A program made the position numbers and the translations under genes. From Escherichia coli (GTDB lineage Bacteria; Pseudomonadota; Gammaproteobacteria; Enterobacterales; Enterobacteriaceae): a stretch of DNA of 64,000 nucleotides. The notes beneath the pieces are model-generated. The model made no database searches and was not told the DNA's origin. It saw nothing but the letters and a program-made list of their open reading frames with translations. How positions within the stretch are numbered: the first letter of the stretch is position 1; every line of letters starts with the position of its first letter. Location: assembly GCF_024502345.1 (NCBI RefSeq), contig NZ_JALDNN010000001.1. One strand, written 5' to 3'. Shown piece after piece: positions 16,936 through 62,147 of the stretch.

Positions 16936-17007
16936 GTGGGGGTTGTGTTTAAGGACGGGGAGAGTCGGGGTATTACTACGAAAGCCCGCTCTCCTGCGAC
17001 CACTTTT

Positions 17008-17175
17008 ATCATAGGAGTGTGGAAGCGCTTTTCCATCAATTGCGATGACGTCTTTATCATTTGATGAATGGCAGTCACGCATCCAGTTAATAAAGCATTC
17101 GTGAAATTATACTGAACGGATACAAGACATAACTCTAATTATGGTGTCGTGAACAGGATTACCATTTTCAAAATT
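17008..17175 (-). mobile_element. H-repeat (ISAs1-family transposase gene) internal fragment, copy 1
   Basis: Reverse strand encodes ...[25 protein letters not shown]...; a near-identical 168-bp copy lies at 18928-19095. Confidence 0.6.
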
Positions 17176-17206
17176 ACGATATTATTTGCAGTAATTATGT
17201 TATTAA

Positions 17207-17719
17207 TCATTGTGATATTTCCATCTCTGTGATTAATACCGGATAAGCATTTAATTGCAGAGTTTGCACGAAATTATCGCAGATAACTGGCAATAACAAT
17301 AACCCATCAGCCCGCTGCTGTAATACCTCCATTCGTTCTACTGATTCAACATTAACAACCAAACCAAGGGCATTTAGCGATTTAAGGATCTCCAGATGTT
17401 CACTCATCCAGCGCAGAGAAAAAGGATCATCCCCAATTATAAAAACAGCCCCCCAGCCGGTTAATAACTGGCGTTTCATTACAGAGCCAGGATGAAGTCG
17501 AGTACATATTACAGGAAATACCCCCTGTTGCGATGGTTCCGATGATGTGGATAATTCAGAAATATTTTCCATTGTTAGTGAAGAATTAACATCCATTAAT
17601 AATGGTGAAACAACCTCACTTTCCTTGCTAGTAATGGCTGCACTAATCTGAAAGGGAAATAACAATATTATTACGTATAAACTCATTTTTAACATAACAC
17701 ATTCAATCCGTTTATTCAT
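17207..17719 (-). CDS. Hypothetical secreted protein (signal peptide), unknown function
   Basis: 170-aa ORF in an AT-rich block; hydrophobic N-terminus MLKMSLYVIILLFPFQISAAITSK; no family recognised. Confidence 0.45.
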   Translation of the reverse strand: MNKRIECVMLKMSLYVIILLFPFQISAAITSKESEVVSPLLMDVNSSLTMENISELSTSSEPSQQGVFPVICTRLHPGSVMKRQLLTGWGAVFIIGDDPFSLRWMSEHLEILKSLNALGLVVNVESVERMEVLQQRADGLLLLPVICDNFVQTLQLNAYPVLITEMEISQ

Positions 17720-17785
17720 GTTATAGAATAATGATGCTATAAATCATCATTAATGTTCAATTATTTAATCACACAATTTGAAAAA

Positions 17786-18289
17786 TCATTGACCAATGTG
17801 AATTGGCAATGTACCACTCAAGTTAAAATCACTGAATATTTTATCAATTTCTCTTGCAGTTTCTATATATTTAACCTCTTTCGTACTTGCATTATAAATA
17901 GCCCAAGCCTCGGGATGGGATGTTCCACCAAACCTTACAAAAAAACTTGATTTCATATTATTATATAAATTAACATCAGGAAAAGGATCTTCTCCAAAAT
18001 TAGTAGTATTGAATAATGAAAGTTCGTATCGCTTAGAAAATTCTGTTGGTAGGATAGCTTCACTGCCATCAATAGCATTCATCCAGAGTTTGTTACCATT
18101 ATATTCCAACAATAATCTCTGTTTTGCATGTGTCTTATCTCGTTCTTTAACGACAGCGAATACCTTTTTAACAACTTGCTGTGCGGATGGTCCTATTGTA
18201 TTACCAAAAGCTGGCAACCCGATTTTGCCATAAACACTCTCCTGAATGAAATAAATATCCGTTTTATCGGCCTCGACAATATCTACCAT
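17786..18289 (-). CDS. Hypothetical protein, unknown function
   Basis: 167-aa ORF in an AT-rich block between the H-repeat fragments; no family recognised. Confidence 0.45.
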   Translation of the reverse strand: MVDIVEADKTDIYFIQESVYGKIGLPAFGNTIGPSAQQVVKKVFAVVKERDKTHAKQRLLLEYNGNKLWMNAIDGSEAILPTEFSKRYELSLFNTTNFGEDPFPDVNLYNNMKSSFFVRFGGTSHPEAWAIYNASTKEVKYIETAREIDKIFSDFNLSGTLPIHIGQ

Positions 18290-18612
18290 TTATCCCTCCA
18301 AACAAGACCTGACTCCAGTACAAGAGCATAGTGTGTAGTAAACACTTCATGCTCTTGCCTTGACCATTGAAATAACAACTTTCGTTTGTTTACTGTACGC
18401 TGTCTAAATAGCTGCGTGGAATAAAGTTGCACTTTTTATCATCCCTTGCAGAGCAAGATTACGAAAGCCCGCCCCCGAAAGGACTGACGCGAGGTAGTCT
18501 CTGTCCGCAGCTGCTTTCACATCTTACATCTTGCCCCTGCCTTGAGTATCTTATCTTTCTTTGAAATATTAATAGCGATGTTCCGTATCCCTGAAAATAA
18601 TTCTGTTGCATT

Positions 18613-19095
18613 TCATCTTCTTATTATAAAGTCGTCTTTATTCATTACCACGTCCAGATGCCAGTGCAATTTATTCTCCACTTGCCAGTGATTTCGGTTC
18701 GCTGTGGCGAACTTCTCTGCGGTTAAATCAGCAGAAATGCTATAATATCTGTCCGTCATTTCTGGCTCTTTCTTTTGTTCTGTTATTATTGAACGAAAGG
18801 AGACTGCCATGCATAATTTCTTCAGCCCTTTTCATTCAAACGTGAAATCAATAAGTTCATCAGGGACATCGCAAATAATATGAAGACGGATTTTAATGAC
18901 ATAAATCGCTCCCTTGCGGCGACTCTTGTCATAAGAGTGCCGAAGCGTTTTTCCATCAATTGCAATGACATCTTTATCATCTGAGGAATGGCAGTCACGC
19001 ATCCAGTTAATAAAGCACTCATGAAATTTTGCAGGACTGATACAGGATACAACTCTGGCAATGATATCGTGAACAGGAATACCATTTTCAAAATC
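18613..19095 (-). pseudogene. H-repeat-associated (ISAs1-family) transposase remnant with internal deletion
   Basis: C-terminal ...[21 protein letters not shown]... (65-aa ORF) plus an upstream copy of the [14 protein letters not shown]... fragment. Confidence 0.65.
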
Positions 19096-19440
19096 ACCAT
19101 ATCACTTCAAAAAATTGGGATGTGTTTCCCCAAATCATCTATATCTTCCCAGCCTTATGCACCAAAAATAACGGCGCAAATAGTTAACAGATAGAATATC
19201 TGGCAATTTATGTTCCACTTTCCAGGCTTGCCTGTAATCGGGGATAATAGAAATATGTTCCATCAATTTTTTAAGTTCCATTTTGTCCCCCTTAATTATG
19301 CAATGAGTATTTGATCATGTATAAGCAATGAAAAACAGCTTTAGGTAATAAGGAACACCTCAATTATTGAACATAAAATGCGAATTATTTAGTACAAAAA
19401 AAACAGCATTACGTGATTTTTCCCTGGGAGTACAGTGTGA

Positions 19441-19490: not shown

Positions 19491-21246
19491 ACTACATGTC
19501 TACATTTTCCCGGTCACCAACCCCTCAATCTTATGAACTTAACCTCGGCTCACCGTTTTCGATTCCATCCAATAAATGACCCGGTTGGATGTGGGCTGAT
19601 CGCCAACAACTTTGCCATCTGCAGAGATTAGCTTCAGCTCTTTATTAGCCTCATCACCGAAGTAAATCATGCGGTAGCGAAAATAACCGCCCCAGGGTTC
19701 ACGTCCACCCAGCGAACTTTGCATAAACCAGGCGCGGGAGTCGTGAACCTGGTCATCATAGAGGGCCAGTAATTCAGCGCATGGCTGAGTACGCGTTCCC
19801 GTTCCCAGTGAATCAATAAAAAATTGTGGATAGAGTCCGTCTCCCATAGCCTTAATTTGCTGATATTCTTTTGCTTCATCATCGCCATTAATCAGATACA
19901 CCGGATATTTAGGAATGACATCCACAAGAATCTGAATGGCTTTCTCCATGACGCTGCCGTTAATATCGCGCGTCCATCCTTTATAATCGCTCTGAAATTC
20001 TCGGGCTGCCTCTCGCAACTGATACTGAGCATTGGTTGGGTCAAGGATAGGAATGCCCTGATTACTTTCATCAAGTGTGCCATTCCCTTTCTGCTTGTTC
20101 GCCCGCTCTTTTTCAATATTTTCCATTTGTTCTTTACGCGCTTTAGCCTCTTTATCAAGTCCATCTTTATCCAGCTGTGGCGCCTTAATATAAAAAGGTT
20201 GCACAAGAAGGCTGTTATTCGCATAGCGACCGATACGCCAGGCGGTGATCCAGCCGATCTGATCGCTAATTGCGCTTTCAAGAACCTGGGCAAGTTGATA
20301 GGAGTGATAACCTTCCCTCGTATCAATCATTTCTTCTGTACCCTGCAAGGTGGTGTTCAGCAGCGTTTGTCGCCAGATGTTGAAGCGTTTTGTTAATGAA
20401 TTAGCAATCGTAAATTCCTTTACGCTAGAAGGACTCATAATTCGCAGAGGCGACACACCTTTTATTAATGGAGTAACAAATTTAGAATAAACAGCAAGTG
20501 GTGCTCCTGAATCAAATGCAGCAAGATACATATCATGCAGTGCTATCTGAGAAAGAATTTCGCCTGAGTCACCACAGGACTTCCCCTGATCGCGAACGGG
20601 ATAGCCACCACCGACATCAGAGTGCATCCCCGGATAGATAATTTCCGTCTGGACGACGGATTGAATCCAGCGGAAAGCACAGCCGCTGCTCATGCGCGGC
20701 AACGAAGTGGCGGCAGCATTTAATCAGGCCGGGAAACTGCCTCTCATCAGGGAGTTGCTGAGTACTATCGGCCCATCCCATATGACCGGCAGCGCCCGGT
20801 AAAACATGCGCCGCCCCCACAGAAGCTACGGTATCCAGCAGCCCCAAAAACTCAATACTGACAGCTAACCCGGCCAGCATCACCTGTTGCTCCTGCGGGC
20901 AAGCTAACTGAGTCAACCAGTTAACAAAAGTTCGTGCTTCCGCTGCGCCACGGGAAAATCCGTAGATAAACAGCTTTACGTTTAGCAGGCGCGGACTGGC
21001 TTGCTCTAACAGTCCCTGTAATTTTTCCAGGTAGGGGTTAATCACATTGCGACGATTCACTTCACCAGTCATAGGCCAGGGAGCGCGCATAAGAGGAATG
21101 TGCTCTTTTGCCACATTATCATCCAGTCGCTTATGGGAAGGGTCAATGGAATAGTTCAGGGCATCCACGAGGCGTAATAATGCCCAATTAATTCGATCTT
21201 CACCACCAGTAGCGAACTCCAGCCCGCTGTTGCTGTAATCCATTTC

Positions 21247-22303
21247 GGCTTTGTTGAATAAATCGAACTTTTGCTGAGTTGAAGGATCAGATCACGTATC
21301 TTCCCGACAACGCAGACCGTTCCGTGGCAAAGCAAAAGTTCAAAATCACCAACTGGCCCACCTACAATAAAGCCCTCATCAACCGTGGCTCCATAACTTT
21401 CTGGCTGGATGATGAAGCTATTCAGGCCTGGTATGAGTCAGCAACACCTTCTTCACGAGGCAGACCTCAGCGCTATTCTGACCTTGCCATCACGACTGTG
21501 CTGGTCATTAAACGCGTATTCAGGCTGACCCTGCGCGCTGCGCAGGGCTTTATTGATTCCATTTTTTCTCTGATGAACGTTCCGCTACGCTGCCCGGATT
21601 ACAGCTGTGTCAGCAGGCGGGCAAAGTCGGTTAATGTCAGTTTCAAAACGCCCACCCGGGGTGAAATCGCACACCTGGTAATTGATTCCACCGGGCTGAA
21701 GGTCTTCGGTGAAGGCGAGTGGAAAGTCAAAAAGCATGGCCAGGAACGCCGCCGTATCTGGCGTAAGCTGCATCTCGCCGTTGACAGTAAAACACATGAA
21801 ATCATCTGCGCTGACCTGTCGCTGAACAACGTTACGGACTCAGAGGCCTTCCCCGGGTTAATCCGGCAAACCCACCGGAAAATCAGGTCAGCCGCCGCCG
21901 ATGGCGCTTACGATACCCGGCTATGTCACGATGAACTGCGGCGTAAGAAAATCAGCGCGCTTATCCCTCCCCGAAAAGGTGCGGGTTACTGGCCCGGTGA
22001 ATATGCAGACCGTAACCGTGCAGTGGCTAATCAGCGAATGACCGGGAGTAATGCGCGGTGGAAATGGACAACAGATTACAACCGTCGCTCGATAGCGGAA
22101 ACGGCGATGTACCGGGTAAAACAGCTGTTCGGGGGTTCACTGACACTGCGTGACTACGATGGTCAGGTTGCAGAGGCTATGGCCCTGGTACGAGCGCTGA
22201 ACAAAATGACGAAAGCAGGTATGCCTGAAAGCGTGCGTATTGCCTGAAAACACAACCCGCTACGGGGGAGACTTACCCGAAATCTGATTTATTCAACAAA
22301 GCC
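21247..22303 (+). mobile_element. IS903-like insertion sequence (IS5 family), 1057 bp
   Basis: Terminal inverted repeats GGCTTTGTTGAATAAATC at both ends; perfect 9-bp target duplication ATCCATTTC at 21238-21246 and 22304-22312. Confidence 0.9.
21279..22247 (+). CDS. IS903-family transposase
   Basis: ORF ...AKQKFKITNWPTYNKALINRGSITFWLDDEAIQAWYES...; true start may be a few codons downstream of the track ATG. Confidence 0.9.
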   Translation: MKDQITYLPDNADRSVAKQKFKITNWPTYNKALINRGSITFWLDDEAIQAWYESATPSSRGRPQRYSDLAITTVLVIKRVFRLTLRAAQGFIDSIFSLMNVPLRCPDYSCVSRRAKSVNVSFKTPTRGEIAHLVIDSTGLKVFGEGEWKVKKHGQERRRIWRKLHLAVDSKTHEIICADLSLNNVTDSEAFPGLIRQTHRKIRSAAADGAYDTRLCHDELRRKKISALIPPRKGAGYWPGEYADRNRAVANQRMTGSNARWKWTTDYNRRSIAETAMYRVKQLFGGSLTLRDYDGQVAEAMALVRALNKMTKAGMPESVRIA

Positions 22304-22659
22304 ATCCATTTCACCTATCTTGGGAAATGGTGTGCCTACACCCGGTATATAGTAGTTAAAATATCCCTGTTCTTCTGCGTTCTGATAGGTCGTATGAAAC
22401 AGTTTGGCAATATTGGTTGGGTGTCCAGGAGTGTCATTATATTCATTATTATTTGTACCATCAAAAAACAGACTAATATGCAGACTTTGATTACACGTAA
22501 AGCCAATTCTAAATCCAGCCTGTTTACTACAGTTGGTTTTGTGCTCTTCTGTTTTATTGATTTGTTTTAGGTAGTTCGCGTTTACCTGCGCTTCAGATAA
22601 TATTAATCGCCCATCTTCAGGGAACAACGGGGGGGCATAACACGGAAAAGCCAGACCAC

Positions 22660-23202
22660 TTATTTTGCTGGACATGTTGCAGGTTCCTTCATCTCGCGGG
22701 GTTCTTTGATAGGATAATTCGGTGTGCCATAGCCCTCGCAGACGGTTGTCACTTTAATCTGATTACACGGCAGAAAATGAACGGTCAGGCCACAACGTTC
22801 AGCGCCGTATTCCGGGATGTCAACAATTACTTTATATTTTTGATAATTTGCAGCATGTTTAGCATAAGCATCTTCTTCATAGCCAAAACCTTCTTTTTTC
22901 ATTGCAATAGGTTCAAGGGGGTTCGGGTCTACTTCCCACTCGATCCGGGCTTTTAATCCAGAATGCCACTTCTTTGGTAACATTATGCAGCAATATCCAC
23001 CGCCCAAACCATGGACCCGATAACCATTTACGGTGAACCAATTAATACTGATACCTTTAATATGATTTATTGCCCGGAGATCACCAGCAGTATAATCGTC
23101 GTAATTAGCTGCTGAGCAACCCGAAATCACCATCAAAATTAACACCAGACAGCCTTTAACTACTTTTGTTATATTCATTCCATTTCTTATTTTGCTGGAC
23201 AT
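22660..23202 (-). CDS. Lipoprotein next to the Tle1 effector gene (possible Tli-type immunity protein)
   Basis: 180-aa ORF with lipobox LILMVISGCSA; sits immediately upstream of the Tle1 fragment; the immunity role is inferred from position only. Confidence 0.5.
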   Translation of the reverse strand: MSSKIRNGMNITKVVKGCLVLILMVISGCSAANYDDYTAGDLRAINHIKGISINWFTVNGYRVHGLGGGYCCIMLPKKWHSGLKARIEWEVDPNPLEPIAMKKEGFGYEEDAYAKHAANYQKYKVIVDIPEYGAERCGLTVHFLPCNQIKVTTVCEGYGTPNYPIKEPREMKEPATCPAK

Positions 23203-23616
23203 GTTGCTGGTTCTTTTACTTTGAGAGATTTTAATTGATGGGTATTGTTTCTACGACAATAAAGTTTTGACAAAGAAGCAAATAAAATGCATATCTTTCG
23301 ATTGTCACACATTGGAATATCGACAGAGCATTGATGATATTACGCAAAATATATTGCAGCCAAGTGAACTGACATTACGATCGAACACAAATGCAACATG
23401 ATGGATACTACCATTACATGTCGAGCTTGATTTTCCGTTTATTTCACGATTATCTCTTGATATTAACAGCTACGGACTTTTAAACAGATAAATCTCCCCG
23501 TACATCACCACAATATTATCCTTCGAAGTCCCGCAAAGCTCCGAAATATTTCGCGTCATTGGCCCTGAAAGCAATATCAAGACAGTGGGCAAAATAGCTT
23601 TCCTGACTGAGTTCAC

Positions 23617-23845
23617 TGTGGGATGCAAATAAAGTTTCATCCTAACCCTAAAAACAGAGAGAAACGTCGCGCGCTCTCCTATTCATAAAAAATCCCTTTT
23701 ATATCAGTATGTTGTGAGCACTTACACCCGAGACTGGATCGTTTTGCCTTTCATGGGAGAATGATTAAGGGCGCTAAAGTATCATCCTAATTTTCGCCCA
23801 GGCTCGAAAAATACGGTAAATGGTGAAAATAAAGATTCATCCTTT
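23617..23845. repeat. Tn7-like left end with three spaced TnsB-binding-type repeats
   Basis: ATAAAGTTTCATCC (about 23626), TAAAGTATCATCC (about 23776), ATAAAGATTCATCC (about 23829). Confidence 0.7.
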
Positions 23846-24138: not shown

Positions 24139-25302
24139 TCAAACTCCCGGTTGTAGTTCCACAAGCATCTCGCGAGTCTTGCCGGCCCGCTCCACTAACA
24201 AGACCACAACATCTCCAACGTTCTTGTCGTCTAGCCGGGCCTGTAATGTGGTGACGTCGTCGACGGCGATACCGTCGATGCTGATAACGCGATCGCCGGG
24301 CACGATGCCGCCTGCGGTGACCTCGACGCCGACGAGCCCGGCCCTGTGCGCCGCCGAGCCCGGCGTCACGCGCAATACGAATACGCCCTTACTGCCGGTC
24401 AGCGCCTGCAGACGCGCGTTGAGCTGCTCATCCACCTCGATGCCCAGCGCCGGACGGATGTACTTGCCGGTCTTTATGAGTTGCGGCACCACGCGCATGA
24501 CGGTATCGACCGGCACCGCAAAGCCGATGCCGGCCGAGGCGCCAGACGGACTGTAGATGGCGGTATTGATGCCGATCAGCCGCCCAGCCGAATCGAGCAG
24601 CGGGCCACCGGAATTGCCGGGGTTGATAGCGGCGTCGGTCTGGATCAGGTGGTCAATGGCCGGGCCACTGGCGTCGCCGGAAAGGGTGCGGTCAAGCGCC
24701 GAGACGATGCCGGTGGTGAGCGTCCAGTCGAGCCCGAAGGGATTGCCAATGGCAAAGACCTTTTGCCCCACCTTGAGATCGGCACTGGTGCCCACCGGCA
24801 CCGCCGGCGGGCGCTTGAAGCCGACGCCAATCTTGAGTACCGCGATGTCGTGCGCAGGACTAGCGCCAACGAGCGCAGCCTGATAATCGCGACCGTCGGC
24901 CAGTTTGACCGTGGCAGACGATGCCCCCTGGATCACGTGGAAGTTGGTCACCACGTGGCCGGCATCGTCCCAGATGAAGCCGGAGCCGGTGCCGCGCGGC
25001 ACGGAAAAGACATTGCGCGACCAGACGTGACGCACTAGTTGTGCCGTGGTGATGTAAACCACCGACCCGCGCGATTTCTCGAACAGCTCGATGGTGGTTT
25101 TTTCGTCGGCGGCCAGGTCGCCGCGCGGCGTCACCGTGCGCTCCTGCGTTTCGTGGGGACTGAACCAGGCTTCGATGGCGGGCAGGAACTGCCACAGCAG
25201 CATGAGTGCGGCGATGCAGCCAGTGATGACGAGCCAGCGCCGGATGAAGCGGTCCGGCGCCGGGCGGCTGTAGGGGTCGGGGTAGGTCACGTCATTCTCC
25301 AT
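24139..25302 (-). CDS. degP: DegP/HtrA-family periplasmic serine protease
   Basis: 387-aa ORF with trypsin-like catalytic motif GNSGGPLLD and a C-terminal PDZ-like region. Confidence 0.85.
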   Translation of the reverse strand: MENDVTYPDPYSRPAPDRFIRRWLVITGCIAALMLLWQFLPAIEAWFSPHETQERTVTPRGDLAADEKTTIELFEKSRGSVVYITTAQLVRHVWSRNVFSVPRGTGSGFIWDDAGHVVTNFHVIQGASSATVKLADGRDYQAALVGASPAHDIAVLKIGVGFKRPPAVPVGTSADLKVGQKVFAIGNPFGLDWTLTTGIVSALDRTLSGDASGPAIDHLIQTDAAINPGNSGGPLLDSAGRLIGINTAIYSPSGASAGIGFAVPVDTVMRVVPQLIKTGKYIRPALGIEVDEQLNARLQALTGSKGVFVLRVTPGSAAHRAGLVGVEVTAGGIVPGDRVISIDGIAVDDVTTLQARLDDKNVGDVVVLLVERAGKTREMLVELQPGV

Positions 25303-25309
25303 GTTGAAA

Positions 25310-27610: not shown

Positions 27611-27779
27611 CTCTGCGCCTTCCAGGGCGATGGCGATCCGTTCGTTGTCGTCGATTTTCGCTTGTTGGCGATGCTTCAGCTCGTCACGCCTGTGGCGATT
27701 GGTACGAGCAAAACGCCATAACGCAACCCCATGCCAACATTGGCAAGTAGCGACACCATCAGCCAGATGGTCGGCCCGT

Positions 27780-29498: not shown

Positions 29499-29586
29499 TC
29501 GGACACTCAGCCCACGCTGATCCGGACACCTGTTCCACGGCCATTCGGACAGGCAGTCGGAGCGCAGCGACGCAGGGGTTGCATTG

Positions 29587-52562: not shown

Positions 52563-52626
52563 ATGAAACTTTATTTATACGGATGATACTTTATTTATAC
52601 GGATGAACCTTTATTTGCATCCCACA
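52563..52626. repeat. Tn7-like right end with three contiguous TnsB-binding-type repeats
   Basis: Reverse complement reads TGTGGGATGCAAATAAAGGTTCATCC-GTATAAATAAAGTATCATCC-GTATAAATAAAGTTTCATTC. Confidence 0.75.
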
Positions 52627-52703
52627 CATTTTACTTAAGGCATAAGCGGTAGAGTTGAGTGATAACCCTTCCATAATTTCATTTTCTAACACACTAATTT
52701 AAT

Positions 52704-53069
52704 TTAGTGTGAATTTCCACTTTTAGTCATTATCGCTATCGCTTCATCGATAGTCGGTATTGTAAAGAGAGAATTCTCTCTACAATCCTTGCGAATAACC
52801 TTCCTGTTTTTTTGAACAGAAATATTTTCGCACCAGGCTAATGTCCCGGTGAAATGCTTTTCTTCCATCCTCATATCTAGAAAAGCAAGTCGATCATTAA
52901 GGGATTGCATATCTTCAGTTACAGTAGAGGGACCTGATTCTAACAGTTCCAGACGGCTTTCCACATCAGCAACCTTGCCTTTAACCTGTGAGACGTCTTC
53001 TGCTAACTTTTCATGTCTGTGGATAGTATCAGCAAGTGCTCGTGAGTTTTGGGCGAATATCTCAGCCAT
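52704..53069 (-). CDS. Hypothetical protein, unknown function
   Basis: 121-aa ORF just outside the Tn7-like right end; coiled-coil-like N-terminus; may be a gene fragment. Confidence 0.3.
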   Translation of the reverse strand: MAEIFAQNSRALADTIHRHEKLAEDVSQVKGKVADVESRLELLESGPSTVTEDMQSLNDRLAFLDMRMEEKHFTGTLAWCENISVQKNRKVIRKDCRENSLFTIPTIDEAIAIMTKSGNSH

Positions 53070-53562: not shown

Positions 53563-55216
53563 TCACGCATACCTGCTTGAAAACTCGTCCATCGAATTAG
53601 ATACCGTAAAATTCACCTCATCACCCAGTGCTTCAAAATGTGCATAACCACATTTTATTTTGGCATTTTCCTCCGGACGTCGTTCCACCGAGAAAAGCGT
53701 GCTTTTGGTTTCGACAACGAAATAGAGCTTTTCTTTTCCGTCCTTTTCGATCAGCACCGCCCAGTCGGGGTTGTAACCGCCTAATGGGGTATCGATTTTG
53801 AACCAACTAGGGAGTTTGGCGTAAAGTTTGATATCCTCGTTTCGCTCGAAGGCCGAGGCGAATTCCAATTCGATATCAGAGTCGTAAACCACGTGGTCGA
53901 AGACGGACTTCGTCATACCAGCGGTAGTTGGCGACCTTGTCGATAAAAAACAGGCTCAGCACCTTAATGCCCTGTGGGCGCAGGCGCATTTCTTTATCGA
54001 GATGCTCTTCAATGGTTTTGCGGATCTGCAGGCGTTTAAATTCATCCGGATCAACTTCTCCCAAGGCCTGACCCAGTTTCAGAATATCGGGCTTACTGGT
54101 AAAGCTGATGTATTCATTGCCCTGTTCGCAGTAGATGTCATCAATAATGTAGCCGTCATATACATCGCGGCCACCGCTGTACCTGGCATCCAGCAAATCC
54201 GCTCCGCTGGTCACCGTGACTTCCTTGCGCTTAATGCTGCCATTCTTCAGGCGAGCATCAATTTCGATTTTGGCACTGATCGGGCTTTTTTTATTGTTCA
54301 CACTGACCAGCTTGATAAAGGCCTTATTGTGGCCGTCCTTAACCTCAATGCCTGCCACTTCAATCTGCTTAACCAGTTTTTGCTCGTAGGCATCAACTGA
54401 ATCAAGCTTGTAGAGCATATGGTGCTTTTCCACATGGGTAGCTGAATAACGCAGTGTACACATGGGATTAAGCGAGGCGATGGCCTCTTTACTCTTATCT
54501 GTGGTGTCAACACTCTGCGGCTCATCGACAATCACAATTGGGTTGGTTTGCTGGATAAATTCGATCGGCTTGGCACCGGTCATCCGGTCGTGTGCCCGGT
54601 GAATGATGTTGGCTTTGTTCTCTTGCTCCGGGTCGCTAAAGCTTTTCCGGAAGGCATCGATATTGATGACCATGATCTGAATGTCAGGGCTGGTCGCAAA
54701 GTTACGCACATCCGACAGCTTACTGGAATCGTAGGTGAAATAGTCGAAGGCAACGTTTTCGTACAGCTCTTTAAAATGAGTCGCCGTAATTTCCAGTGAC
54801 TTCTGCACTCCTTCTTTAATGGCGATGGACGGCACCACGATAATAAACTTGGTAAAGCCATAGAGCCGGTTCATTTCGAAAACTGTACGCAGGTAAACAT
54901 AGGTTTTACCCGTTCCGGTTTCCATTTCCACGGTTAAGTGAATGCCGTATTTCGAGTCAAATGACTCTGACGGCGCGAGGCCATTTTTCAGCTGTATTTT
55001 GCGGATATTGGCATGGATGTCTTCATCCAGCAGGCGTAGGCGGTTACCAATACCCAGGGTATCTTCCTGAATACCATGAAACAGCGAGCCTTCTTCCCAG
55101 GAATGCAGCGGTGCTACCGTAAAGTTGGTCTGGCAGATTTCCTGGCCGGCGAATACGCCCGTTACTGACTCAATCGCATCACGCTGATAGCCAAGGTGAT
55201 AGCTGTAACTCTTCAA
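53563..55216 (-). pseudogene. Type III restriction Res-like helicase/endonuclease, frameshifted and internally deleted
   Basis: 446-aa ORF with helicase motif I (EMETGTGKTYVY), IVIVDEPQ and KVLSLFFIDKVANYR, overlapping a 117-aa ORF with a PD-(D/E)xK-like core (GGYNPDWAVLIEKDG...LYFVVETKS); the expected C-terminal helicase motifs are missing. Confidence 0.65.
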
Positions 55217-55700
55217 TGACCCACTTTGCTTGATCCGCTCTGTTTATGCGCTTGTCCGCCAGGCAGATAGCCAGTTGTTCTTTGTCGTGTTGTTTTTCGC
55301 GTACGTTTGAATCCGAATCGCCAGTGCCCTCTGTGCCTTTGTTTTCAGCGTGCACAAAGAAAATTACTAATGGGTAAGGTATCGCCCTGTTGATCAGCTG
55401 ACCAATTCGTTCTGCGCTTTTGGTATTGCTTAATTCCACGTGCAGAAAGGCCAGCTCACCATAGTCGCGCAGGTCGTCACTAAAAGGCGCGATATTGATG
55501 GTGCTGGGCTTTAGGGTGTAGAGCCAACGGATTTTATCAACATCGTCCTTCAGAGCCTTTTTGTCTTTAGCGTCCAGGTCGGCGTGCTCCTGAAACATCT
55601 TTTTGAACAGGGGCTTATTGAGCACACAGCTATTGGGCACGTTCAAGCCTTCCAGAAAGGCTTCGAATTGTGGCAAGCCTAACCTCATATCAGACATCAC
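55179..55700 (-). CDS. Hypothetical protein coupled upstream of the Res-like gene
   Basis: 173-aa ORF whose stop overlaps the Res-like start; no family recognised with confidence. Confidence 0.45.
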   Translation of the reverse strand: MMSDMRLGLPQFEAFLEGLNVPNSCVLNKPLFKKMFQEHADLDAKDKKALKDDVDKIRWLYTLKPSTINIAPFSDDLRDYGELAFLHVELSNTKSAERIGQLINRAIPYPLVIFFVHAENKGTEGTGDSDSNVREKQHDKEQLAICLADKRINRADQAKWVIEELQLSPWLSA

Positions 55701-56337
55701 GCTCTCCTTGACCTTCTGTTCCCTGAGTAACGGCTGTCAATATCAGGTAGGACACCACCATAAAGTCTTCAATGCCCTGACTGGAGGTGGCGGTAAGTAC
55801 AGTACCGCCTTTGGCAAACAGGCTTTCAATGCCTTTTTCTTCGCTCTTCCCGGCAATGCTATCTACAGCGACAGCTAATAGGTGCTGAAAGTGGCTCATA
55901 TCACACCCGTGGCGTGTCATGCGGTTAACTTCGGTGATGGCGGGTTGATCGGGCACTTTGTGCTTAAAGGCTTCACGCTTGAGCAGATCGAGTATCTTTT
56001 TACTTTGGGTGAAGTTCAGCTCAACTACAGTGCTGCCTTCGGCATCAGCGGTCACGTAGATCAGGAAGTAAGGTGCCAGCGGGTAATTATCATCTACCTG
56101 AACCGCTTCTTTACCGCTGCGGATATTCTTCAGGCAGAAGATGACGCCGGGTTTGATGCCATCGGCGACCATATCTTCGTCAATGCTGACGGCGGCATAC
56201 AGGCCTAGCGGTGTTTGCTCCAGCGTTGCGAGACGGGCCTTATCGTTCATGTAGCCTGACAGATCCATGCGGAAGTCATTGAGGGTAAGGTCGGTAATGG
56301 ATACCGGATGGGGCGTGGAGGATATGGTAGCAACCAT
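55690..56337 (-). CDS. Hypothetical protein, first gene of the Res-like module, possibly 5'-truncated
   Basis: ORF overlaps the start of the 173-aa gene; the upstream in-frame extension runs into unrelated GC-rich DNA and no convincing RBS precedes Met at 56337. Confidence 0.4.
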   Translation of the reverse strand: MVATISSTPHPVSITDLTLNDFRMDLSGYMNDKARLATLEQTPLGLYAAVSIDEDMVADGIKPGVIFCLKNIRSGKEAVQVDDNYPLAPYFLIYVTADAEGSTVVELNFTQSKKILDLLKREAFKHKVPDQPAITEVNRMTRHGCDMSHFQHLLAVAVDSIAGKSEEKGIESLFAKGGTVLTATSSQGIEDFMVVSYLILTAVTQGTEGQGERDV

Positions 56338-56835
56338 GATGCGCTGTCTGCCGGACCGCGCCACCAGCCCAGTAGCGACACAGTTGCACGGGAGGCTCTG
56401 CACGGAGCCGGTAAAGTCGCAGGCCCGTGACGGCTTCGGTGAGGCGGTGGGGCGGGTGTTCGATACGGCAGAGTCATCGTCATTCCTGCCTGCGCCGCTG
56501 AAGACGGTGATACGTACCGTGCGTGATGCGGTGGTGTCTGTAGCCCGCGCGGTCTGGGACTGGATCTTCTTCTGAATGAGTAAAAGGTCATCAGCGTTGT
56601 AGTGGATGGCTCTGTTTATTCACAGCCTGGTGGATGATTATTTTAAAGCAGACACAACCTGTCCTGACCAGCAAAAGATATCACCAGTCATAAGCGCGTC
56701 ACCACTGCCGACGTTGCATCCACGCAGTCTTCTCGCGCCAGGCGTTTCGCTACGTATCACGGACATAACCTGTCAGTCTCATCCTTTACAGTAATACCTT
56801 CTTAATTAATCAATTACCAAACACGGAGATAATAC

Positions 56836-57159
56836 ATGTCTCAGACTGAGCGTCGTTATGACCGCCTGTCTGTCCGGCTTTCTCTGATTATCAGCCGTCT
56901 GCTCGCGGGTGAAACGCTGAATATGCGCAAACTGGCCGCTGAGTTTGGCGTCTCGGAGCGTACCCGCCAGCAGTCAGCGGCTGTGGCGTCACAATACACC
57001 AACGTTGCTACAGAGGATGACCAGAACACACATTTTCGCCTGGTGGTCCGGGATACCGACGGCAGGATGCACTGGCGGGCCAGGAACTTTGAGCCGGAGG
57101 CGGGTTACTGGCTGAACCGCTATCTCACCAGCGATGGCATTCGCAGAGCCACAACGTAA
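56836..57159 (+). CDS. Hypothetical protein with a helix-turn-helix-like N-terminus
   Basis: 107-aa ORF ...[29 protein letters not shown]...; possibly a fragment. Confidence 0.35.
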
Positions 57160-57278: not shown

Positions 57279-58097
57279 ATGCGACTCGCCAGCCGCTTTG
57301 GCCGTATCAATCAGATCCGCCGCGACCGCCCCTTAACCCATGAAGAATTAATGCAGGTTGTTCCCAGCGTCTTCGGGGAAGGTAAGCACGTGTCCCGTTC
57401 AGACCATTACAGCTACATACCGACCATTACCCTGCTGGAGAACCTGCAGCGTGAAGGATTCCAGCCATTCTTTGCCTGCCAGACCCGCGTCAGGGACCAG
57501 AGCCGCCGTGAGCATACGAAACATATGCTGCGCCTGCGTCGCTCCGGGCAGATAACCGGTCAGCAGGTGCCGGAAATTATCCTGCTCAATTCGCATGACG
57601 GTTCGTCCAGTTACCAGATGTTGCCGGGGTATTTCCGTGCCATCTGTACCAACGGTCTCGTCTACGGGCAGTCATTTGGCGAGGTGCGAGTGCCACACCG
57701 GGGAAATGTCGTGGAGAAAGTGATTGAAGGCGCTTACGAAGTCCTCGGTGTGTTCGACCGGGTGGAAGAGAAGCGTGATGCGATGCAGTCGCTTTTACTC
57801 CCGCCACCGGCACAACAGGCTTTTGCCAGAGCCGCGCTGACGTACCGCTTCGGGGAAGAGCACCAGCCGGTGACGGAAGCGCAGATACTGACACCCCGCC
57901 GCTATAAAGACCGTCAGGATGACCTGTGGTCAGTTTTTAATCGGTGCCAGGAGAACCTGCTCAAAGGGGGGCTGCCAGGACGTACTGCCAAAGGCAAACG
58001 CAGCCATACCCGCGCGGTGAAAGGCATCGACGGCGACGTTAAGCTCAACCGGGCACTCTGGGTGATGGCGGAAAAACTGCAGCAGGCGCTGAGCTGA
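57279..58097 (+). CDS. DUF932-family protein (YfjQ/YafZ-like) of a CP4-like prophage remnant
   Basis: 272-aa ORF at the position this family occupies in CP4-type elements; assignment from recalled family resemblance. Confidence 0.6.
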   Translation: MRLASRFGRINQIRRDRPLTHEELMQVVPSVFGEGKHVSRSDHYSYIPTITLLENLQREGFQPFFACQTRVRDQSRREHTKHMLRLRRSGQITGQQVPEIILLNSHDGSSSYQMLPGYFRAICTNGLVYGQSFGEVRVPHRGNVVEKVIEGAYEVLGVFDRVEEKRDAMQSLLLPPPAQQAFARAALTYRFGEEHQPVTEAQILTPRRYKDRQDDLWSVFNRCQENLLKGGLPGRTAKGKRSHTRAVKGIDGDVKLNRALWVMAEKLQQALS

Positions 58098-58364
58098 TGC
58101 CACCGCTGCCTGATAACGCCCACCCGGTCGCCATTTATCCTGCCCCCTGGAGAACAACCCCGGCAGCCGCTCCATCTCCGATGACGACCTGTGCGCCTAT
58201 GCTCACACCTTCTTTATCGTCCCGGTGAACTCAGTTTCTGCCGGTTAAGTCTCGCTGACGGCCACTGGCCCTCACACTGTGATGAAGACGGCTATGCGCA
58301 GTCATGTCCGTCACTCCGATTGAACCAGTATCCCCAACACAATGAATGAAAGAGGAAAAACAAC

Positions 58365-58835
58365 ATGACCGATAACACTCTGCCACTGTTCACACCCGCA
58401 GCAGATGCTCTTGCTGCGGCTCAGCATCAGATTATCGCTATACCGGTAACCGATGAGAACCGCATCAGCTTCTGGCCGCAGCACTTTGGCAGCATTCCGC
58501 AGTGGATAATCCTTGAGCCGACCATCTTCGCGTGGATGGACCGCTTCAGCACGGACTACAACGGCGGCATCTGGAATTTTTACACGCTGAGCAACGGCGG
58601 TGCGTTTATGGCCCCGGAAGTGGAGAACGATGAACTCTGGTCGCTGTTTAACACGATGAACGGCAACGGCGGTGACATGAGTGCTGAAGCTGCAGGGATT
58701 GCGGTCTGTCTGATGGCTTACAGCCACCATGCCTGCCGTACCGAATGCGACGCCATGACGGAGCACTACTACCGCCTGCGGGACTACGCGCTCAACCACG
58801 CGGAATGCAACGCCATCATGCACATCATCGACTGA
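58365..58835 (+). CDS. Antirestriction protein (KlcA/ArdB family; YfjX/YafX-like)
   Basis: 156-aa ORF with family-typical blocks ([25 protein letters not shown]). Confidence 0.7.
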
Positions 58836-58846
58836 GGTCAGCCGCT

Positions 58847-59326
58847 ATGGAGCAACAGTTACCGTTGTTTGCCCGTGAATTAGCCCCTGCCGACCTGCAG
58901 ACAGTCAGGAAAGCCTTATCTCTGTTGAAGTGCCAGCTACGTGAAACCGGGGCGTCATTTACTTCCAGCCATGCCGTCCGCGACTGGCTGCGCCTGCAGC
59001 TCGCGTCACTGGAGCGGGAAGAGTTTACCGCGCTCTTTCTCGATAACCAGCATCGCCTGATAGCCCACGAAACGCTATTTACCGGCACCATCAACCATAC
59101 GCAGGTCCATCCCCGCGAAGTGGTGAAGGCCGGTCTGAAGCATAACTGCGCCGCTGTCATTGTCGCCCATAGCCATCCCTCCGGGGAGGCTGAACCCAGC
59201 AAGGCAGACCGTCAGGTCACTACGCGTATTCAGCAGGCGCTGGACCTGGTTGATATCCGCCTGCTGGACCACCTGGTGGTCGGCGGCATGGAGATCACCT
59301 CGTTTGCAGATCGTGGCTGGCTGTAG
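58847..59326 (+). CDS. RadC-like JAB/MPN-domain protein (YeeS/YfjY/YkfG family)
   Basis: Start [12 protein letters not shown]... (ATG 58847); JAMM motif [19 protein letters not shown]. Confidence 0.85.
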
Positions 59327-59346
59327 CACAACAGGAGAATAACCCA

Positions 59347-59568
59347 ATGAAAATTATCAGTAAACGTCAGGCTATGGCGATATACCGCCAGCATCCGCAG
59401 TCCCGGTTGTTTCCCTTCTGCACGGGTAAATACAAATGGTCTGGCAGCATCTGCCACTACGCCGGGCAGGAGGTTCAGGATATCAGCGGTGTGCTCGCGG
59501 TCTTCGCTGAACGCCGTCAGAACCGCAACGGCCACTATGTCGTATTACGCAGCGTCACGCTGAATTAA
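59347..59568 (+). CDS. DUF987-family small protein (YeeT/YkfH-like)
   Basis: 73-aa ORF between the radC-like gene and the antitoxin gene, as in CP4-type elements. Confidence 0.65.
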   Translation: MKIISKRQAMAIYRQHPQSRLFPFCTGKYKWSGSICHYAGQEVQDISGVLAVFAERRQNRNGHYVVLRSVTLN

Positions 59569-59591
59569 CACACGTTTAAGGAAGGTTAAAA

Positions 59592-59951
59592 TTGTCGAAT
59601 AAAACACCGATAGTAAACCACGATGTCACTGAACCCTGGTGGGGGCTTAAACGCAGTATCACGCCCTGTTTTGGCGTACGGCTGGTGCAGGCGGGCAACT
59701 GTCTGCATTATCTCGCTGACCGGGCCAGCATCACCGGACAGTTCAGCGACGCGGATTTACGGCATCTCGACCAGGCATTTCCACTGCTGCTCAAACAGCT
59801 TGGACTGATGCTCACCAGCGGTGAACTCACTCCCCGCCATCAGCACTGTGTCACGCTCTATGCAAAAGGGCTGACCTGCGAGGCCGACTCCCTCGGCTCG
59901 CATGGTTACGTATACCTGGCGATTTATCCGACACCAGCGGCAACCGCGTAA
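59592..59951 (+). CDS. CbeA/YeeU-family antitoxin (type IV TA)
   Basis: TTG-start 119-aa ORF with PWWGL...[19 protein letters not shown]...[21 protein letters not shown] blocks. Confidence 0.8.
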
Positions 59952-60001
59952 AGCTTCTTACTACTTACCCTCGTTTTACCCATCAACAAAGAGATCCCAC
60001 T

Positions 60002-60379
60002 ATGCAAACCCAACCACTATCCTCAACGCAGGAGGCTACATCACGCCCGTCACCGGTGGAGATCTGGCAACAGCTTCTGAGCCACCTGTTGGATCGTCAC
60101 TACGGTCTGACGCTTAACGACACGCCGTTTGGCAACGACGGTGTGATTCAGGAGCATATCGACGCCGGTATATCACTGTGCGACGCCGTGAATTTTATTG
60201 TGGAGAAGTACGATCTGGTGCGCATCGATCGTCACGGTTTCAGTACAGAAACACAGTTGCCGCGTCTCACCAGTATCGATATTCTCCGCGCCCGCAAAGC
60301 CACCGGGTTGATGACTCGCAACGATTACAGAACGGTGACCGACATCACCACCGGTAAATACCGTGGGGGGCATCGATGA
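60002..60379 (+). CDS. CbtA/YeeV-family toxin (type IV TA, cytoskeleton-targeting)
   Basis: 125-aa ORF ...[30 protein letters not shown]...[17 protein letters not shown]...[18 protein letters not shown]. Confidence 0.8.
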
Positions 60380-60867
60380 AGTTATCCCTGACGGTAGAAG
60401 CCGACGCCATCAACGTTCTGGCCCTGAATGCGGGCCGAATCGCTGTGGATATTGACGGCATTGAACTGGCTGCGCTGATCGATGTGGTCTGTGATAACGG
60501 TTATTCCCTTCGCGTTGCTGACTCCCCCGGAAAGCTGGTCGTTGAAGATCCGCTTCCACCCGTCGCCCGCGTTAATGGCATCCAGTGCAGTACCGCGCAT
60601 ATTACGGAGGAAGACAACGCTCTGCTGTTTACTCTTTCACACCAGAATGAAGACTTTGGTGAGTCGGAATGGATTAGTTACACCGGGTCGGGTTATCTGC
60701 TCCACCTGGGTGCCTGGTCATTTCCGGTCTTACGCCTCAAACGTCTCGGTCTGTCGAAAGCCTGCCGTCGGTTAGTAGTGACGCTTATCCGTCGCTACGC
60801 CGTTGGCATTGTTCATCTGGATGCCTTTGGCGCAGTGCTGCCGGGCTTTGACATTTTCGACTGGTAA
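60376..60867 (+). CDS. Hypothetical protein translationally coupled to the CbtA-like toxin gene
   Basis: 163-aa ORF whose ATG overlaps the toxin stop (ATGA); family not recognised. Confidence 0.4.
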
Positions 60868-60898
60868 ATCTTCTCACCAATAAGCACAGGATATTCTC

Positions 60899-61102
60899 AT
60901 GGAGAAATTAACCACCGAAGTGGCTCTCAACGTTCTGATTGACTGGCTGCAGGACAACATCGATTGTGGGAACATGATTATTTTCGACAACGACGAAGAC
61001 AACACCGATTCAGCAGTGCTGTTGCCCTGGATTGAACGTGCGCGTCAGGACGTTCGCGATCTCCGTCATCTTCAACTTCTGCGACAGACCAGTACAAATT
61101 AA
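60899..61102 (+). CDS. Hypothetical small acidic protein
   Basis: 67-aa ORF MEKLTTEVALNVLIDWLQDNIDCGNMIIFDNDED... Confidence 0.35.
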   Translation: MEKLTTEVALNVLIDWLQDNIDCGNMIIFDNDEDNTDSAVLLPWIERARQDVRDLRHLQLLRQTSTN

Positions 61103-61182
61103 CCACCGAACAGTACTCATCACTTACTCATAATCGCCAGCCCTCACCGGCTGGCGCTTTGCTTTATATAAGGAACGAAATA

Positions 61183-62034
61183 ATGTCAGAGCTTACTCTC
61201 ACCAAACCCGAAGTATTAACCGGCCACACCGACGTGATTTGCTCCACCAGCATTGAGCGTATTGTCACCGGACGTAATGCCGCACTGGCGCAGATTGAAG
61301 CGCTGATACAACAACTTGACACTATTTCAACGCTGACCCGCAGTATCGGGGGAAAAACCGCGTTGGACTGGGCTATGAAGCAGGATTTCCGTTGTGGCTG
61401 CTGGCTGATGGAGAAACCAGAAGCAGCGCTGAAGGCCATTACCCGTAATCTCGATCGCAGCATATGGCGAGACCTGATGAAGAAGTCGGGCATGCTTTCG
61501 CTCATGGATGCTCAGGCTCGTGAGCAGTGGTACAACAGCCTGGAAAAGGACGATATTCCCGCTGTCAGTGAAGCCAATATCCTCAGTACGTTTGAGCAGT
61601 TGCACCAGAGCAAAGGCGAGGTGTTTGAGCGTGGGGCGATCAACGTGTTTAAAGGGCTGAGCTGGGATTTTAAGAGCAATAGCCCATGTAAGTTCGGGAA
61701 AAAGATCATCGTTACGGGACTGGTCAAATGTGATCGGTGGGGATTTGGGCTTAACTGGGGCTGGCAACGTGATCGGCTTGCAGACCTTGAACGCATGCTG
61801 ATGCTTCTTGATGGCAAACCGGTTCCCGACAACCGCGCTGACGTTACCCGTCGTCTCAGCGATCATATCCATGCTAATCGGCACAGCAATCGTTACGAGG
61901 ACGAGATGTTTGCGATCAAGTACTTTCAGAAGGGGACAGCGCATATCATCTTCAAACGACCAGAGCTGGTTGATAAGCTGAACGACATCATCGCCCGACA
62001 CTATCCGGGAGCACTGCCAGCGAGAAGAGAGTGA
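61183..62034 (+). CDS. DUF4942-like prophage protein
   Basis: Start MSELTLTKPEVLTGHTDVI... (ATG 61183); last gene before aspV. Confidence 0.55.
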   Translation: MSELTLTKPEVLTGHTDVICSTSIERIVTGRNAALAQIEALIQQLDTISTLTRSIGGKTALDWAMKQDFRCGCWLMEKPEAALKAITRNLDRSIWRDLMKKSGMLSLMDAQAREQWYNSLEKDDIPAVSEANILSTFEQLHQSKGEVFERGAINVFKGLSWDFKSNSPCKFGKKIIVTGLVKCDRWGFGLNWGWQRDRLADLERMLMLLDGKPVPDNRADVTRRLSDHIHANRHSNRYEDEMFAIKYFQKGTAHIIFKRPELVDKLNDIIARHYPGALPARRE

Positions 62035-62111
62035 GTTGTCCGATGCTATCTCAGGTAAGCCAGCGCAAGCCGGACGGTAATGGCATACTGGATGGCATAC
62101 CGAAAAAAACA

Positions 62112-62147
62112 GATATAAAAAAGGCCATGCTAATCAATAGCATGGCC
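62112..62147 (-). terminator. Rho-independent terminator of aspV
   Basis: Hairpin ggccatgc...gcatggcc followed on the reverse strand by a T-run (aaaaaa on the forward strand), 8 nt past the tRNA 3' end. Confidence 0.55.

Follow-up and report, generated by a model that had tools for sequence, protein, structure and literature searches.

The yafV-aspV interval of an Escherichia coli genome: a probable mosaic of a T6SS stump, a CP4-like island and a Tn7-like transposon carrying a heat-resistance locus

Layout and composition of the interval

We analyzed a stretch of 64,000 nucleotides from Escherichia coli (NCBI RefSeq assembly GCF_024502345.1, contig NZ_JALDNN010000001.1), referred to here as the window, and studied the 45 kb that lie between the core gene yafV and the terminator hairpin (62122-62148) of the tRNA gene aspV. 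From left to right, the window holds the scar of the Flag-2 deletion (lafU/lfhA'), the genes fadE, ivy and yafV, the interval itself, aspV, and then dnaQ and rnhA (Table 1). We consider it highly probable that the interval is a mosaic of three large layers, later trimmed by deletions. The first would be the old, yafV-proximal end of a type VI secretion system region (T6SS-1), made up of scraps of the insertion sequence (IS) ISAs1, two AT-rich open reading frames (ORFs) and tle1-tli1-tla1. The second would be a P4/CP4-like island that entered the 3' end of aspV through a 20-bp attachment (att) site and brought a type III restriction-modification (R-M) system, a module of DUF4391 and an Snf2-type helicase, and an antirestriction-RadC-YeeU/CbtA tail. 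As the third layer, a 29-kb Tn7-like transposon (tnsABCDE) would have arrived with a single cargo, a GC-rich heat and stress locus resembling tLST2 (tLST, transmissible locus of stress tolerance).

Table 1. Features of the yafV-aspV interval and its borders, by position in the window
Feature	Position	Strand	Basis
yafV, core gene, left boundary	16156-16935	+	RefSeq annotation of 97-99% identical loci; ORF list
ISAs1 (H-repeat) transposase fragment A	16987-17181	-	NF033564, E 1.1e-15, conceptual translation; ISAs1 pseudogene in 33F4 annotation
AT-rich ORF, DUF2859 / PFL_4695 integrative conjugative element (ICE) protein family	17207-17719	-	PF11072, E 6e-28; TIGR03765, E 5e-35
AT-rich hypothetical ORF without family match	17786-18289	-	profile searches
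ISAs1 transposase fragment B, frameshifted	18459-19281	-	NF033564, E 9.6e-17, joined ORF pieces
tle1 pseudogene, T6SS phospholipase effector	19539-22675	-	Pfam Tle1 domains (C-terminal, catalytic) in three ORF pieces; comparison with PapRG-04-4
IS903 (IS5 family), complete, 1,057 bp	21247-22303	+	18-bp inverted repeats GGCTTTGTTGAATAAATC; DDE transposase
tli1 (DUF3304), intact immunity gene	22660-23202	-	PF11745, E 1.3e-24
tla1 (DUF4123 chaperone), 3' fragment, last 101 bp	23516-23616	-	homology to 33F4 and PapRG-04-4 stops at 23616-23618
Tn7-like transposon, 29,010 bp	23617-52626	-	both termini TGTGGGATGCAAATAAAG; repeated TnsB-type sites at both ends
tLST/LHR heat-resistance locus, tLST2-like	24139-43614	-	ClpK profile; RefSeq names from 99.7% identical loci
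IS21-family element, istA and istB, 2,550 bp	29482-32031	-	NF033546 and NF038214 above cutoffs
IS66-family remnant, TnpA N-terminal part and TnpC C-terminal tail (last 37 residues)	43990-44400	+	NF047595, E 3.6e-18; NF033517, E 5e-6; PF01527
Second, isolated IstB (IS21 helper ATPase) fragment	44660-44833	-	NF006616, E 1.8e-14
tnsE, tnsD, tnsC, tnsB, tnsA, all full-length open frames	44883-52506	-	Pfam TnsE_C, TniQ and TnsD, AAA_22/TniB, Mu-transpos_C, TnsA N- and C-terminal domains
CATTT, kept right-hand copy of the original 5-bp target duplication	52627-52631	.	CATTT on both sides in LR536430
121-aa hypothetical gene of CP4-like island	52704-53069	-	comparison with annotated relatives
res remnant, type III restriction endonuclease, start missing	53563-55189	-	PF19778 and PF04851; PADLOC REase_III
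DUF4391 N-terminal fragment and Snf2-type helicase C-terminal fragment	55188-56304	-	PF14335; fusion protein in 25 collection blocks
GTPase C-terminal fragment and WYL'-DUF905 fusion ORF	56302-57159	+	comparison with LR536430; same allele in 873.10
CP4-like island, conserved tail	57279-62034	+	Pfam; RefSeq annotation of relatives' loci (L003 = LR536430, L007)
att core, 20 bp, overlapping aspV 3' end, sole copy in window	62150-62169	.	second copy upstream of integrase in NCTC9966 and LR536430
aspV, tRNA-Asp (GTC)	62156-62232	-	ARAGORN

An earlier note, made from the letters of the window, had described the interval as a 45-kb mosaic of independently acquired elements at aspV, and the computed composition bears this out. 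Against a core baseline of 1-kb segments (mean GC 0.518, standard deviation 0.038), 22 of the 46 such segments of the interval lie more than two standard deviations away, so that composition is heterogeneous rather than uniform, and GC ranges from 0.35 to 0.68. The AT-rich block that the note placed at 17.2-19.5 kb is real, as the ISAs1 scraps and AT-rich ORFs (16.9-19.5 kb) have a GC of 0.378, with z-scores from -2.6 to -3.9. So is its GC-rich block at 24-52.5 kb, which corresponds to the Tn7-like element (GC 0.608, peaking at 0.64-0.68 and falling to 0.55-0.57 at 33-37 kb); inside the element, GC is up to 0.64 in the tLST blocks, 0.57 in the hdeD/yfdX block and 0.58 in the tns genes. The other AT-rich block, proposed at 52.6-56.3 kb, holds for the first 0.9 kb to the right of the transposon (GC 0.41) but not for the remainder, where the remnants of res and the helicase have a GC of 0.49 (z merely -0.6 to -1.9); the tail of the island has a GC of 0.55. 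One AT-rich block, at 22.3-24.1 kb, had not been listed, and it takes in the stump of tle1 (N-terminal part), tli1 and truncated tla1 (22.3-23.6 kb, GC 0.398). The four IS types named in the note (ISAs1 fragments, IS903, IS21-family and IS66-family) were all verified by profile searches and analysis of ends.

Outside the interval, the Flag-2 scar (lafU and truncated lfhA, 5481-8169) is K-12-like. A dinJ-yafQ toxin-antitoxin pair at about 9.6-10.4 kb, found in the window and in 33F4 and lacking in C 236-04A, coincides with a dip in GC to 0.44.

At the left of the interval, the two ISAs1 fragments flank the DUF2859/PFL_4695 ORF and the hypothetical ORF (16.9-19.5 kb). A Pfam search of the short ISAs1 ORFs gave no match, and NCBIfam profiles run on joined conceptual translations identified both. 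Measured against what marks the ISAs1 family, an intact transposase and element ends, they are two degenerate fragments below the family cutoff, of a kind common to many E. coli genomes. The neighboring effector gene tle1 has been inactivated twice, by IS903, which splits it, and by a 23-bp slippage deletion between 10-bp GATAATTTCC repeats at about position 20636. IS903 itself shows the length (about 1,057 bp), the 18-bp terminal inverted repeats, the DDE transposase and the 9-bp duplication expected of its kind; the duplication (ATCCATTTC) lies at 21238-21246 and 22304-22312, and 33F4 has the empty site.

Of a T6SS-1 cluster, only the tle1 pseudogene, intact tli1 and 101 bp of tla1 are left, and we found no core T6SS genes at the locus. 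The immunity gene tli1 is thus orphaned, its effector being doubly inactivated and the secretion system absent from the locus, and it could still guard the cell against Tle1-armed neighbors. The left block, through tle1-tli1-tla1, is 97-99% identical to strains that carry T6SS-1 beside yafV (33F4, PapRG-04-4 and NC101). This argues that it is old resident DNA, probably the yafV-proximal end of the T6SS-1 region, and no recent arrival at aspV. The tla1 fragment ends exactly at the left terminus of the Tn7-like element.

The Tn7-like transposon and its heat-resistance cargo

The presence of a Tn7-like element, as claimed in the earlier note, was confirmed by Pfam, which found TnsA, TnsB, TnsC, TnsD and TnsE. 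Membership of the Tn7 family follows from the five full-length ORFs, which comprise the TnsB transposase, the TnsC AAA+ regulator and the TnsD/TniQ and TnsE target selectors. Its termini are inverted (TGT...ACA) and are followed by several internal repeats, with 20-bp repeats at 52563-52616. When TnsA was aligned to TnsA of Tn7 (1f1z, E 1.9e-60), the residues E63, D114 and K132 were all conserved. The tnsA gene is intact in the window and in G3/10, and is split by a 1-bp indel in LR536430 and C 236-04A (at the equivalent of window position 51923), which could be either a real inactivation or a long-read assembly error.

DNA of this transposon or of the tLST occurs in 234 of the 5,426 complete RefSeq genomes of E. 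coli, and at aspV in 3 only. In G3/10, a near-identical element occupies an unrelated site of the chromosome; over the first 8.4 kb it shows 4 differences, and its IS21-family element is at the same position. Variants with 95% identity are found at attTn7 downstream of glmS (TC24), in a pheV island (strain 81) and on plasmids. Insertion at the glmS site was seen in relatives only: in TC24 tnsA adjoins glmS, in contig L027 the left end adjoins pstS, and the window copy lies elsewhere. In TC24, the element at attTn7 stands beside an lpf-O113 fimbrial operon, between glmS and pstS, so that this attTn7 region is itself a small mosaic.

The heat-resistance island had been placed inside the Tn7-like element, and it is indeed its cargo; the tLST makes up the whole cargo of a complete tnsABCDE element. 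Its genes run in the order degP, htpX-like, psiE, GGDEF, kefB-GI, the IS21-family element, trx-GI, orf11, hdeD, yfdX2, yfdX1, sHSP-GI, a truncated ftsH, cls, clpK, sHSP20 and a helix-turn-helix gene. This conserved order, the ClpK/ClpG-GI disaggregase, sHSP20 and the set of envelope and oxidative stress genes identify the locus as a tLST. ClpK scores 2153 bits against a cutoff of 1900 (NF033606), and the match to ftsH-GI covers profile positions 8-432 of 598. From these genes, resistance to heat, chlorine or pressure would be predicted.

As the earlier note had it, the IS21-family element sits inside the heat-resistance island, and it did so by simple insertion. The 7-bp duplication CAAATCC flanks it (29475-29481 and 32032-32038), and strain 81 (L005) has the empty site. 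Its istA/istB tandem, the terminal 23-bp repeats at both ends and a duplication within the family norm of 4-8 bp place it in the IS21 family. It entered codons 2-4 of kefB-GI, splitting the native ATG and ribosome-binding site (now at about 32041) from the body of the gene, which is opened by a new ATG in the IS end (29498). The insertion may be polar on kefB-GI, GGDEF, psiE, htpX and degP. Beside tnsE, within the cargo, lie an IS66 remnant and an isolated IstB fragment, the latter not listed in the earlier note. A complete IS66 element consists of tnpA-tnpB-tnpC with terminal inverted repeats; here tnpB is missing, which makes this a remnant and not an element. Since the same composite, including the IS21-family element, occupies another chromosomal site in G3/10, the IS21-family element, the IS66 scraps and the tLST were probably assembled before the transposon reached aspV, where they would have arrived as a ready-made unit.

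Compared with near-identical copies, the window has an extra 46 bp of the 23-bp terminal repeat of the IS21-family element (31959-32027), a 9-bp indel in kefB-GI (28989) and, at the 3' end of clpK (39714), 12 bp fewer than LR536430 and 24 bp fewer than G3/10. In degP-GI (24652-24802) there are about 29 differences per 150 bp to LR536430 and 0 to G3/10, and clpK has a dense cluster of single-nucleotide polymorphisms (SNPs) against LR536430 at 40588-40988. Both clusters look like gene-conversion patches between tLST variants. ABWA45 has, about 30 kb away from its copy at aspV, a second, classical tLST (L033, 45.5-49 kb) in the CP4-6 island at thrW.

The aspV island, its decay and the left junction of the transposon

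To the right of the transposon, the DNA from the 121-aa gene to DUF4942 corresponds to the right two thirds of a CP4-like integrative island of about 27 kb in NCTC9966 and LR536430. There, its borders are marked by a 20-bp direct repeat, which overlaps the aspV 3' end, and its integrase lies at the far end. The second att copy and the integrase, both present in NCTC9966 and LR536430, are absent from the window, so that the window copy does not qualify as a tRNA island in its own right and is an immobilized remnant. The cargo in relatives is a type III R-M system, followed by DUF4391 and the Snf2-type helicase, and the tail encodes DUF932, antirestriction, radC, DUF987, yeeU, cbtA, DUF5983, DUF957 and DUF4942. 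Our comparison thus departs from the earlier note, in which a Res-like module stood as an independent unit: that module and the CbtA/RadC/DUF4942 tail appear to be one P4/CP4-like integrative island at aspV, with the former as its cargo. Around the helicase, PADLOC reports REase_III/MTase_III neighbors and the candidate 'C3a139 HKD+Snf2', with weaker hits to DrmD and BrxH. DUF4391 itself has no PADLOC model, and the DUF4391-helicase pair (LR536430, L003, 15596-19709) may be an uncharacterized accessory to type III R-M.

When scored against LR536430, the window shows four deletions of 1,376, 2,375, 4,479 and 2,266 bp, with microhomologies of 2-5 bp (CTTC, TA, TAC and TACCC), and the intervening DNA is 99.9-100% identical. 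Deletion 1 (1,376 bp, CTTC) lies inside res, with its junction at 53908-53911; deletion 2 (junction 55188-55189) removed 2,375 bp including the entire mod gene; deletion 3 (junction 56302-56304) removed 4,479 bp; and at deletion 4 (junction 56961-56965) 2,266 bp are absent. With them went mod, the beginning and central part of res and the bulk of the helicase; DUF4391, the GTPase and the stretch from WYL to DUF905 each lost a part. With mod absent, and res truncated at both ends and internally, no type III R-M system is left. The metagenome contig L012 carries deletions 2-4 and an undeleted res, which argues that deletion 1 came last. The allele of deletion 4 encodes a 107-aa WYL'-DUF905 fusion; strain 873.10 has it too, in a different CP4-like island, which makes it an older shared allele. 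We also considered a single complex event, of the type of microhomology-mediated break-induced replication, for all four deletions; we rejected it, as L012 lacks one of the four and deletion 4 goes back to the older shared allele.

We then asked how the transposon came to lie between these two units. NCTC9966, whose island is complete, represents the empty site, and LR536430, C 236-04A and ABWA45 carry the element at exactly the right junction of the window. In LR536430, CATTT stands on both sides of it. In the window, the 5-bp flanks are TTCAC on the left, inside tla1, and CATTT on the right, so the target duplication seen at the same right junction in LR536430 is missing; this reflects a later rearrangement and does not bear on family membership. 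The mismatch of the flanks, taken with the duplication in LR536430, argues against an insertion of the element between T6SS stump and res. The earlier note had proposed just such an insertion, as part of strictly nested insertions in which the element transposed directly into the boundary between the two at aspV. The positional order in the window does match such a model, but the window has no 5-bp duplication, the identical right junction sits with its duplication inside the CP4-like island of LR536430, NCTC9966 has the empty site, and the two flanks come from different units that are not normally adjacent. We therefore regard direct insertion at this boundary as very improbable. The homology to tla1 stops at the transposon tip, bar a 2-bp TG overlap, and the junction between T6SS and transposon would be a later deletion or recombination ending at that tip, and no insertion site.

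Could the junction be an artefact? Neither the left junction nor the right-hand arrangement was found in any of the 5,426 complete genomes, so the interval is not conserved in this form across E. coli, and this absence is what an assembly artefact or chimera would predict. Independent contigs from NCBI drafts, ENA and Logan do, however, contain every unusual junction, at 99.8-100% identity. The DUF4391 fusion protein of the right-hand arrangement is found in the 25 collection blocks of Table 1, including the NCBI drafts GCA_001484085.1 and GCA_050022275.1. An exact-protein look-up found the fusion ORF of the Tle1 N-terminal part with IS903 in 7 contigs; the same look-up for a 56-aa ORF across the left junction found none on record. 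Three or four ENA metagenome contigs carry the left junction and the IS903 site at 99.8-100% identity, the junction being in L028-L030. We give next to no credence to an artefact, which we rejected on the recurrence of the junctions, and this recurrence argues for a lineage that genuinely circulates.

The loss to the left of the transposon is an observed event, and three mechanisms by which it may have happened, ranked here, fit its geometry. Recombination between two copies of the element comes first, since genomes with two copies exist; a break at the left end with microhomology-mediated joining comes second; and replicative adjacent deletion comes last, as TnsA looks active.

In the first of these, which we favor tentatively, one copy in tla1 with a TTCAC duplication would have recombined homologously with another in the aspV island, flanked by CATTT. 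The two copies could have been on the same chromosome, in which case the intervening DNA was deleted, or on donor and recipient DNA during transfer between strains. Two copies are known on the chromosome of UGGI01000001, and 873.10 and 2273-PO3 each have one copy on the chromosome and another on a plasmid. At the transposon terminus the junction is exact. Sequence from the transposon to 58 kb is near-identical to that of LR536430, as against differences of 1-5% in the flanking core; this suggests lateral exchange. On the other side, the 5,426 complete genomes contained neither a copy in tla1 nor a reciprocal junction. A scan of JGI metagenomes for the predicted reciprocal junction Tn7R-TTCAC-tla1 (36-mer TTTATTTGCATCCCACATTCACTGACTRCTTTCTCC) gave 0 matches, as did the control scan for the observed junction TTCCTGACTGAGTTCACTGTGGGATGCAAATAAAG, so that the scan speaks neither for nor against this mechanism. 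The density of SNPs relative to LR536430 and G3/10 gave no clear crossover breakpoint within the element, and the differences fall in short conversion-like patches and small indels. Moreover, Tn7 target immunity disfavors two nearby copies in one chromosome.

The second mechanism, which we hold to be somewhat unlikely, starts from a transposase break at the left end only, or from an aborted excision; the flank would then have undergone resection, and microhomology-mediated end joining would have linked it to the protected tip. The TG overlap between the continuation of tla1 and the transposon tip fits this, as do the four further deletions with 2-5 bp of microhomology in the same lineage and the intact tnsA and tnsB genes. 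A 2-bp overlap is, however, expected by chance in about 1/16 of cases, and there is no trace of the 3-nt donor overhang expected from TnsA cleavage. Adjacent deletion by intramolecular replicative transposition of the element has a fitting geometry, since one original flank is kept, a new flank stands at the tip and there is no duplication. It seems improbable to us, because a full-length TnsA with E63, D114 and K132 conserved would be expected to cut and paste. Replicative transposition of Tn7 is known only for catalytic mutants of TnsA.

More speculatively, the fusion at the tip without a duplication could record a one-ended event initiated by the transposase, in which cleavage or strand transfer at the left end was followed by microhomology joining, an idea that we consider rather doubtful. 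If true, it would mean that cut-and-paste elements of the Tn7 family sculpt genomic islands by adjacent deletion, and that the neighboring serial microhomology deletions arose by the same route of repair or were favored by selection for loss of the type III R-M/Snf2 module.

Order of events and comparison with known systems

Taken together, our model suggests the following order. In step 1, a resident T6SS-1 end with ISAs1 scraps would have been in place, and in step 2 the CP4-like island integrated at aspV. In step 3, elsewhere, the tLST would have been captured by the Tn7-like element, with the IS66 and IstB scraps and the insertion of the IS21-family element at the start of kefB-GI. Transposition into the island at a non-attTn7 site, with the CATTT duplication, would be step 4. 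In step 5, the DNA between tla1 and the left tip would have been lost, and with it the remainder of the T6SS as well as the island's left third, its integrase and attL. Step 6 would be the inactivation of tle1 by IS903 and the 23-bp slippage deletion, and step 7 deletions 2 and 3, then deletion 1, with deletion 4 as an older allele. For steps 1-4 and 7 the evidence consists of target duplications, empty sites and shared junctions, which, like the element boundaries and the order of several events, we observed directly. IS903, the 23-bp deletion in tle1 and the left-hand loss co-occur in every contig seen, which does not fix their relative timing.

Several points weigh against this reading. We found no genome with the presumed ancestral arrangement, an intact T6SS together with an island that carries the Tn7-like element. 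All three complete genomes that have it at the aspV site lack a T6SS, and one of them, ABWA45, was rejected as such an ancestor on that ground. Instead of a deletion within the lineage, the left-hand event could have been an exchange between genomes. Divergence from LR536430 is about 0 and rises to about 1.4% to the right of about 58 kb; this jump suggests that homologous replacement also shaped the locus, which would blur a strictly linear order. Finally, the function of the tLST, tli1 and the tns genes is judged from intact reading frames alone.

In the metagenome contig L011, the island at 53.5-62 kb is identical to the window, and 46 differences (against window 62000-64000), all to the right of aspV, match the core pattern of LR536430. 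Either the island is shared between backgrounds, or recombination occurred at aspV, or the contig is chimeric. Homologous exchange thus appears to move segments of the island between backgrounds.

On balance, we retain the three trimmed layers as our reading. The earlier note saw the locus as a layered record of sequential acquisitions at one tRNA hotspot. The mosaic at a hotspot stands; the sequence of arrivals does not, because copies at other sites indicate that the IS21-family element, the IS66 scraps and the tLST came as one, and the locus is equally a record of deletion. Judged by their reading frames, the Tn7-like element with its tLST, the orphan tli1, and the toxin-antitoxin and antirestriction tail still look functional.

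The interval is a clean example of a tRNA hotspot that records both gain and loss. Positional nesting alone misleads here, and the order of events needs target duplications and empty sites in relatives. The stepwise loss of the restriction and helicase genes, with an intermediate from a metagenome, amounts to a small natural time series of the decay of a defense system. In addition, a heat-resistance locus of clinical and food-safety relevance is carried about by a complete Tn7-like transposon that has no other cargo and whose landing sites include attTn7, plasmids and genomic islands. That aspV is an island hotspot is already known, and every component belongs to a known family; the locus is instructive but ordinary in kind, and leaves current concepts unchanged.

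Each layer has well-described counterparts. The left block shares its chromosomal site, and tle1-tli1-tla1 beside yafV, with the aspV-linked T6SS-1 islands and SPI-6 of Salmonella (PMC2907695, PMC2941450), but the window keeps a 4-kb stump in which tle1 is twice inactivated, tla1 is truncated and the core T6SS genes are gone from the locus. The island resembles CP4-6 and CP4-57 in its tRNA integration through short att repeats and in its tail (GTPase, WYL, YfjS/YafY, DUF905, DUF932, antirestriction, RadC, DUF987 and YeeU/CbtA). It differs in its site at aspV, in its cargo of type III R-M, DUF4391 and Snf2 helicase, and in the deletion of the integrase, attL and most of that cargo in the window.

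The cargo resembles tLST2, also called LHR2 (Mercer 2015, PMC4563881; Kamal 2021 review, PMC8290217), in a ClpK above the NCBIfam cutoff, in the matching gene set (sHSP20, cls, ftsH-GI, sHSP-GI, yfdX1/2, hdeD, trx, kefB, GGDEF, psiE, htpX-like and degP), in a GC of about 0.62-0.64 and in the mobile elements that flank it. The truncated ftsH-GI and the IS21-family element in codons 2-4 of kefB-GI set the window copy apart, and it lacks the orfC/orfD insert found in strain 81 and TC24. Tn7 elements can occur at the flanks of the tLST (Kamal 2021 review, PMC8290217). No paper emerged when we searched the literature for tLST together with 'Tn7-like', and the tLST as the entire cargo of a complete tnsABCDE element is not spelled out in the literature searched. 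Finally, the transposon shares with Tn7 the five tns genes, the catalytic triad of TnsA, TGT...ACA ends with repeated TnsB-type sites and, in its relatives, a 5-bp duplication and insertion downstream of glmS, with the right end beside glmS. It differs from Tn7 in its end sequences, its cargo and its non-attTn7 site, and the window copy also in the missing target duplication, its left flank having been replaced.

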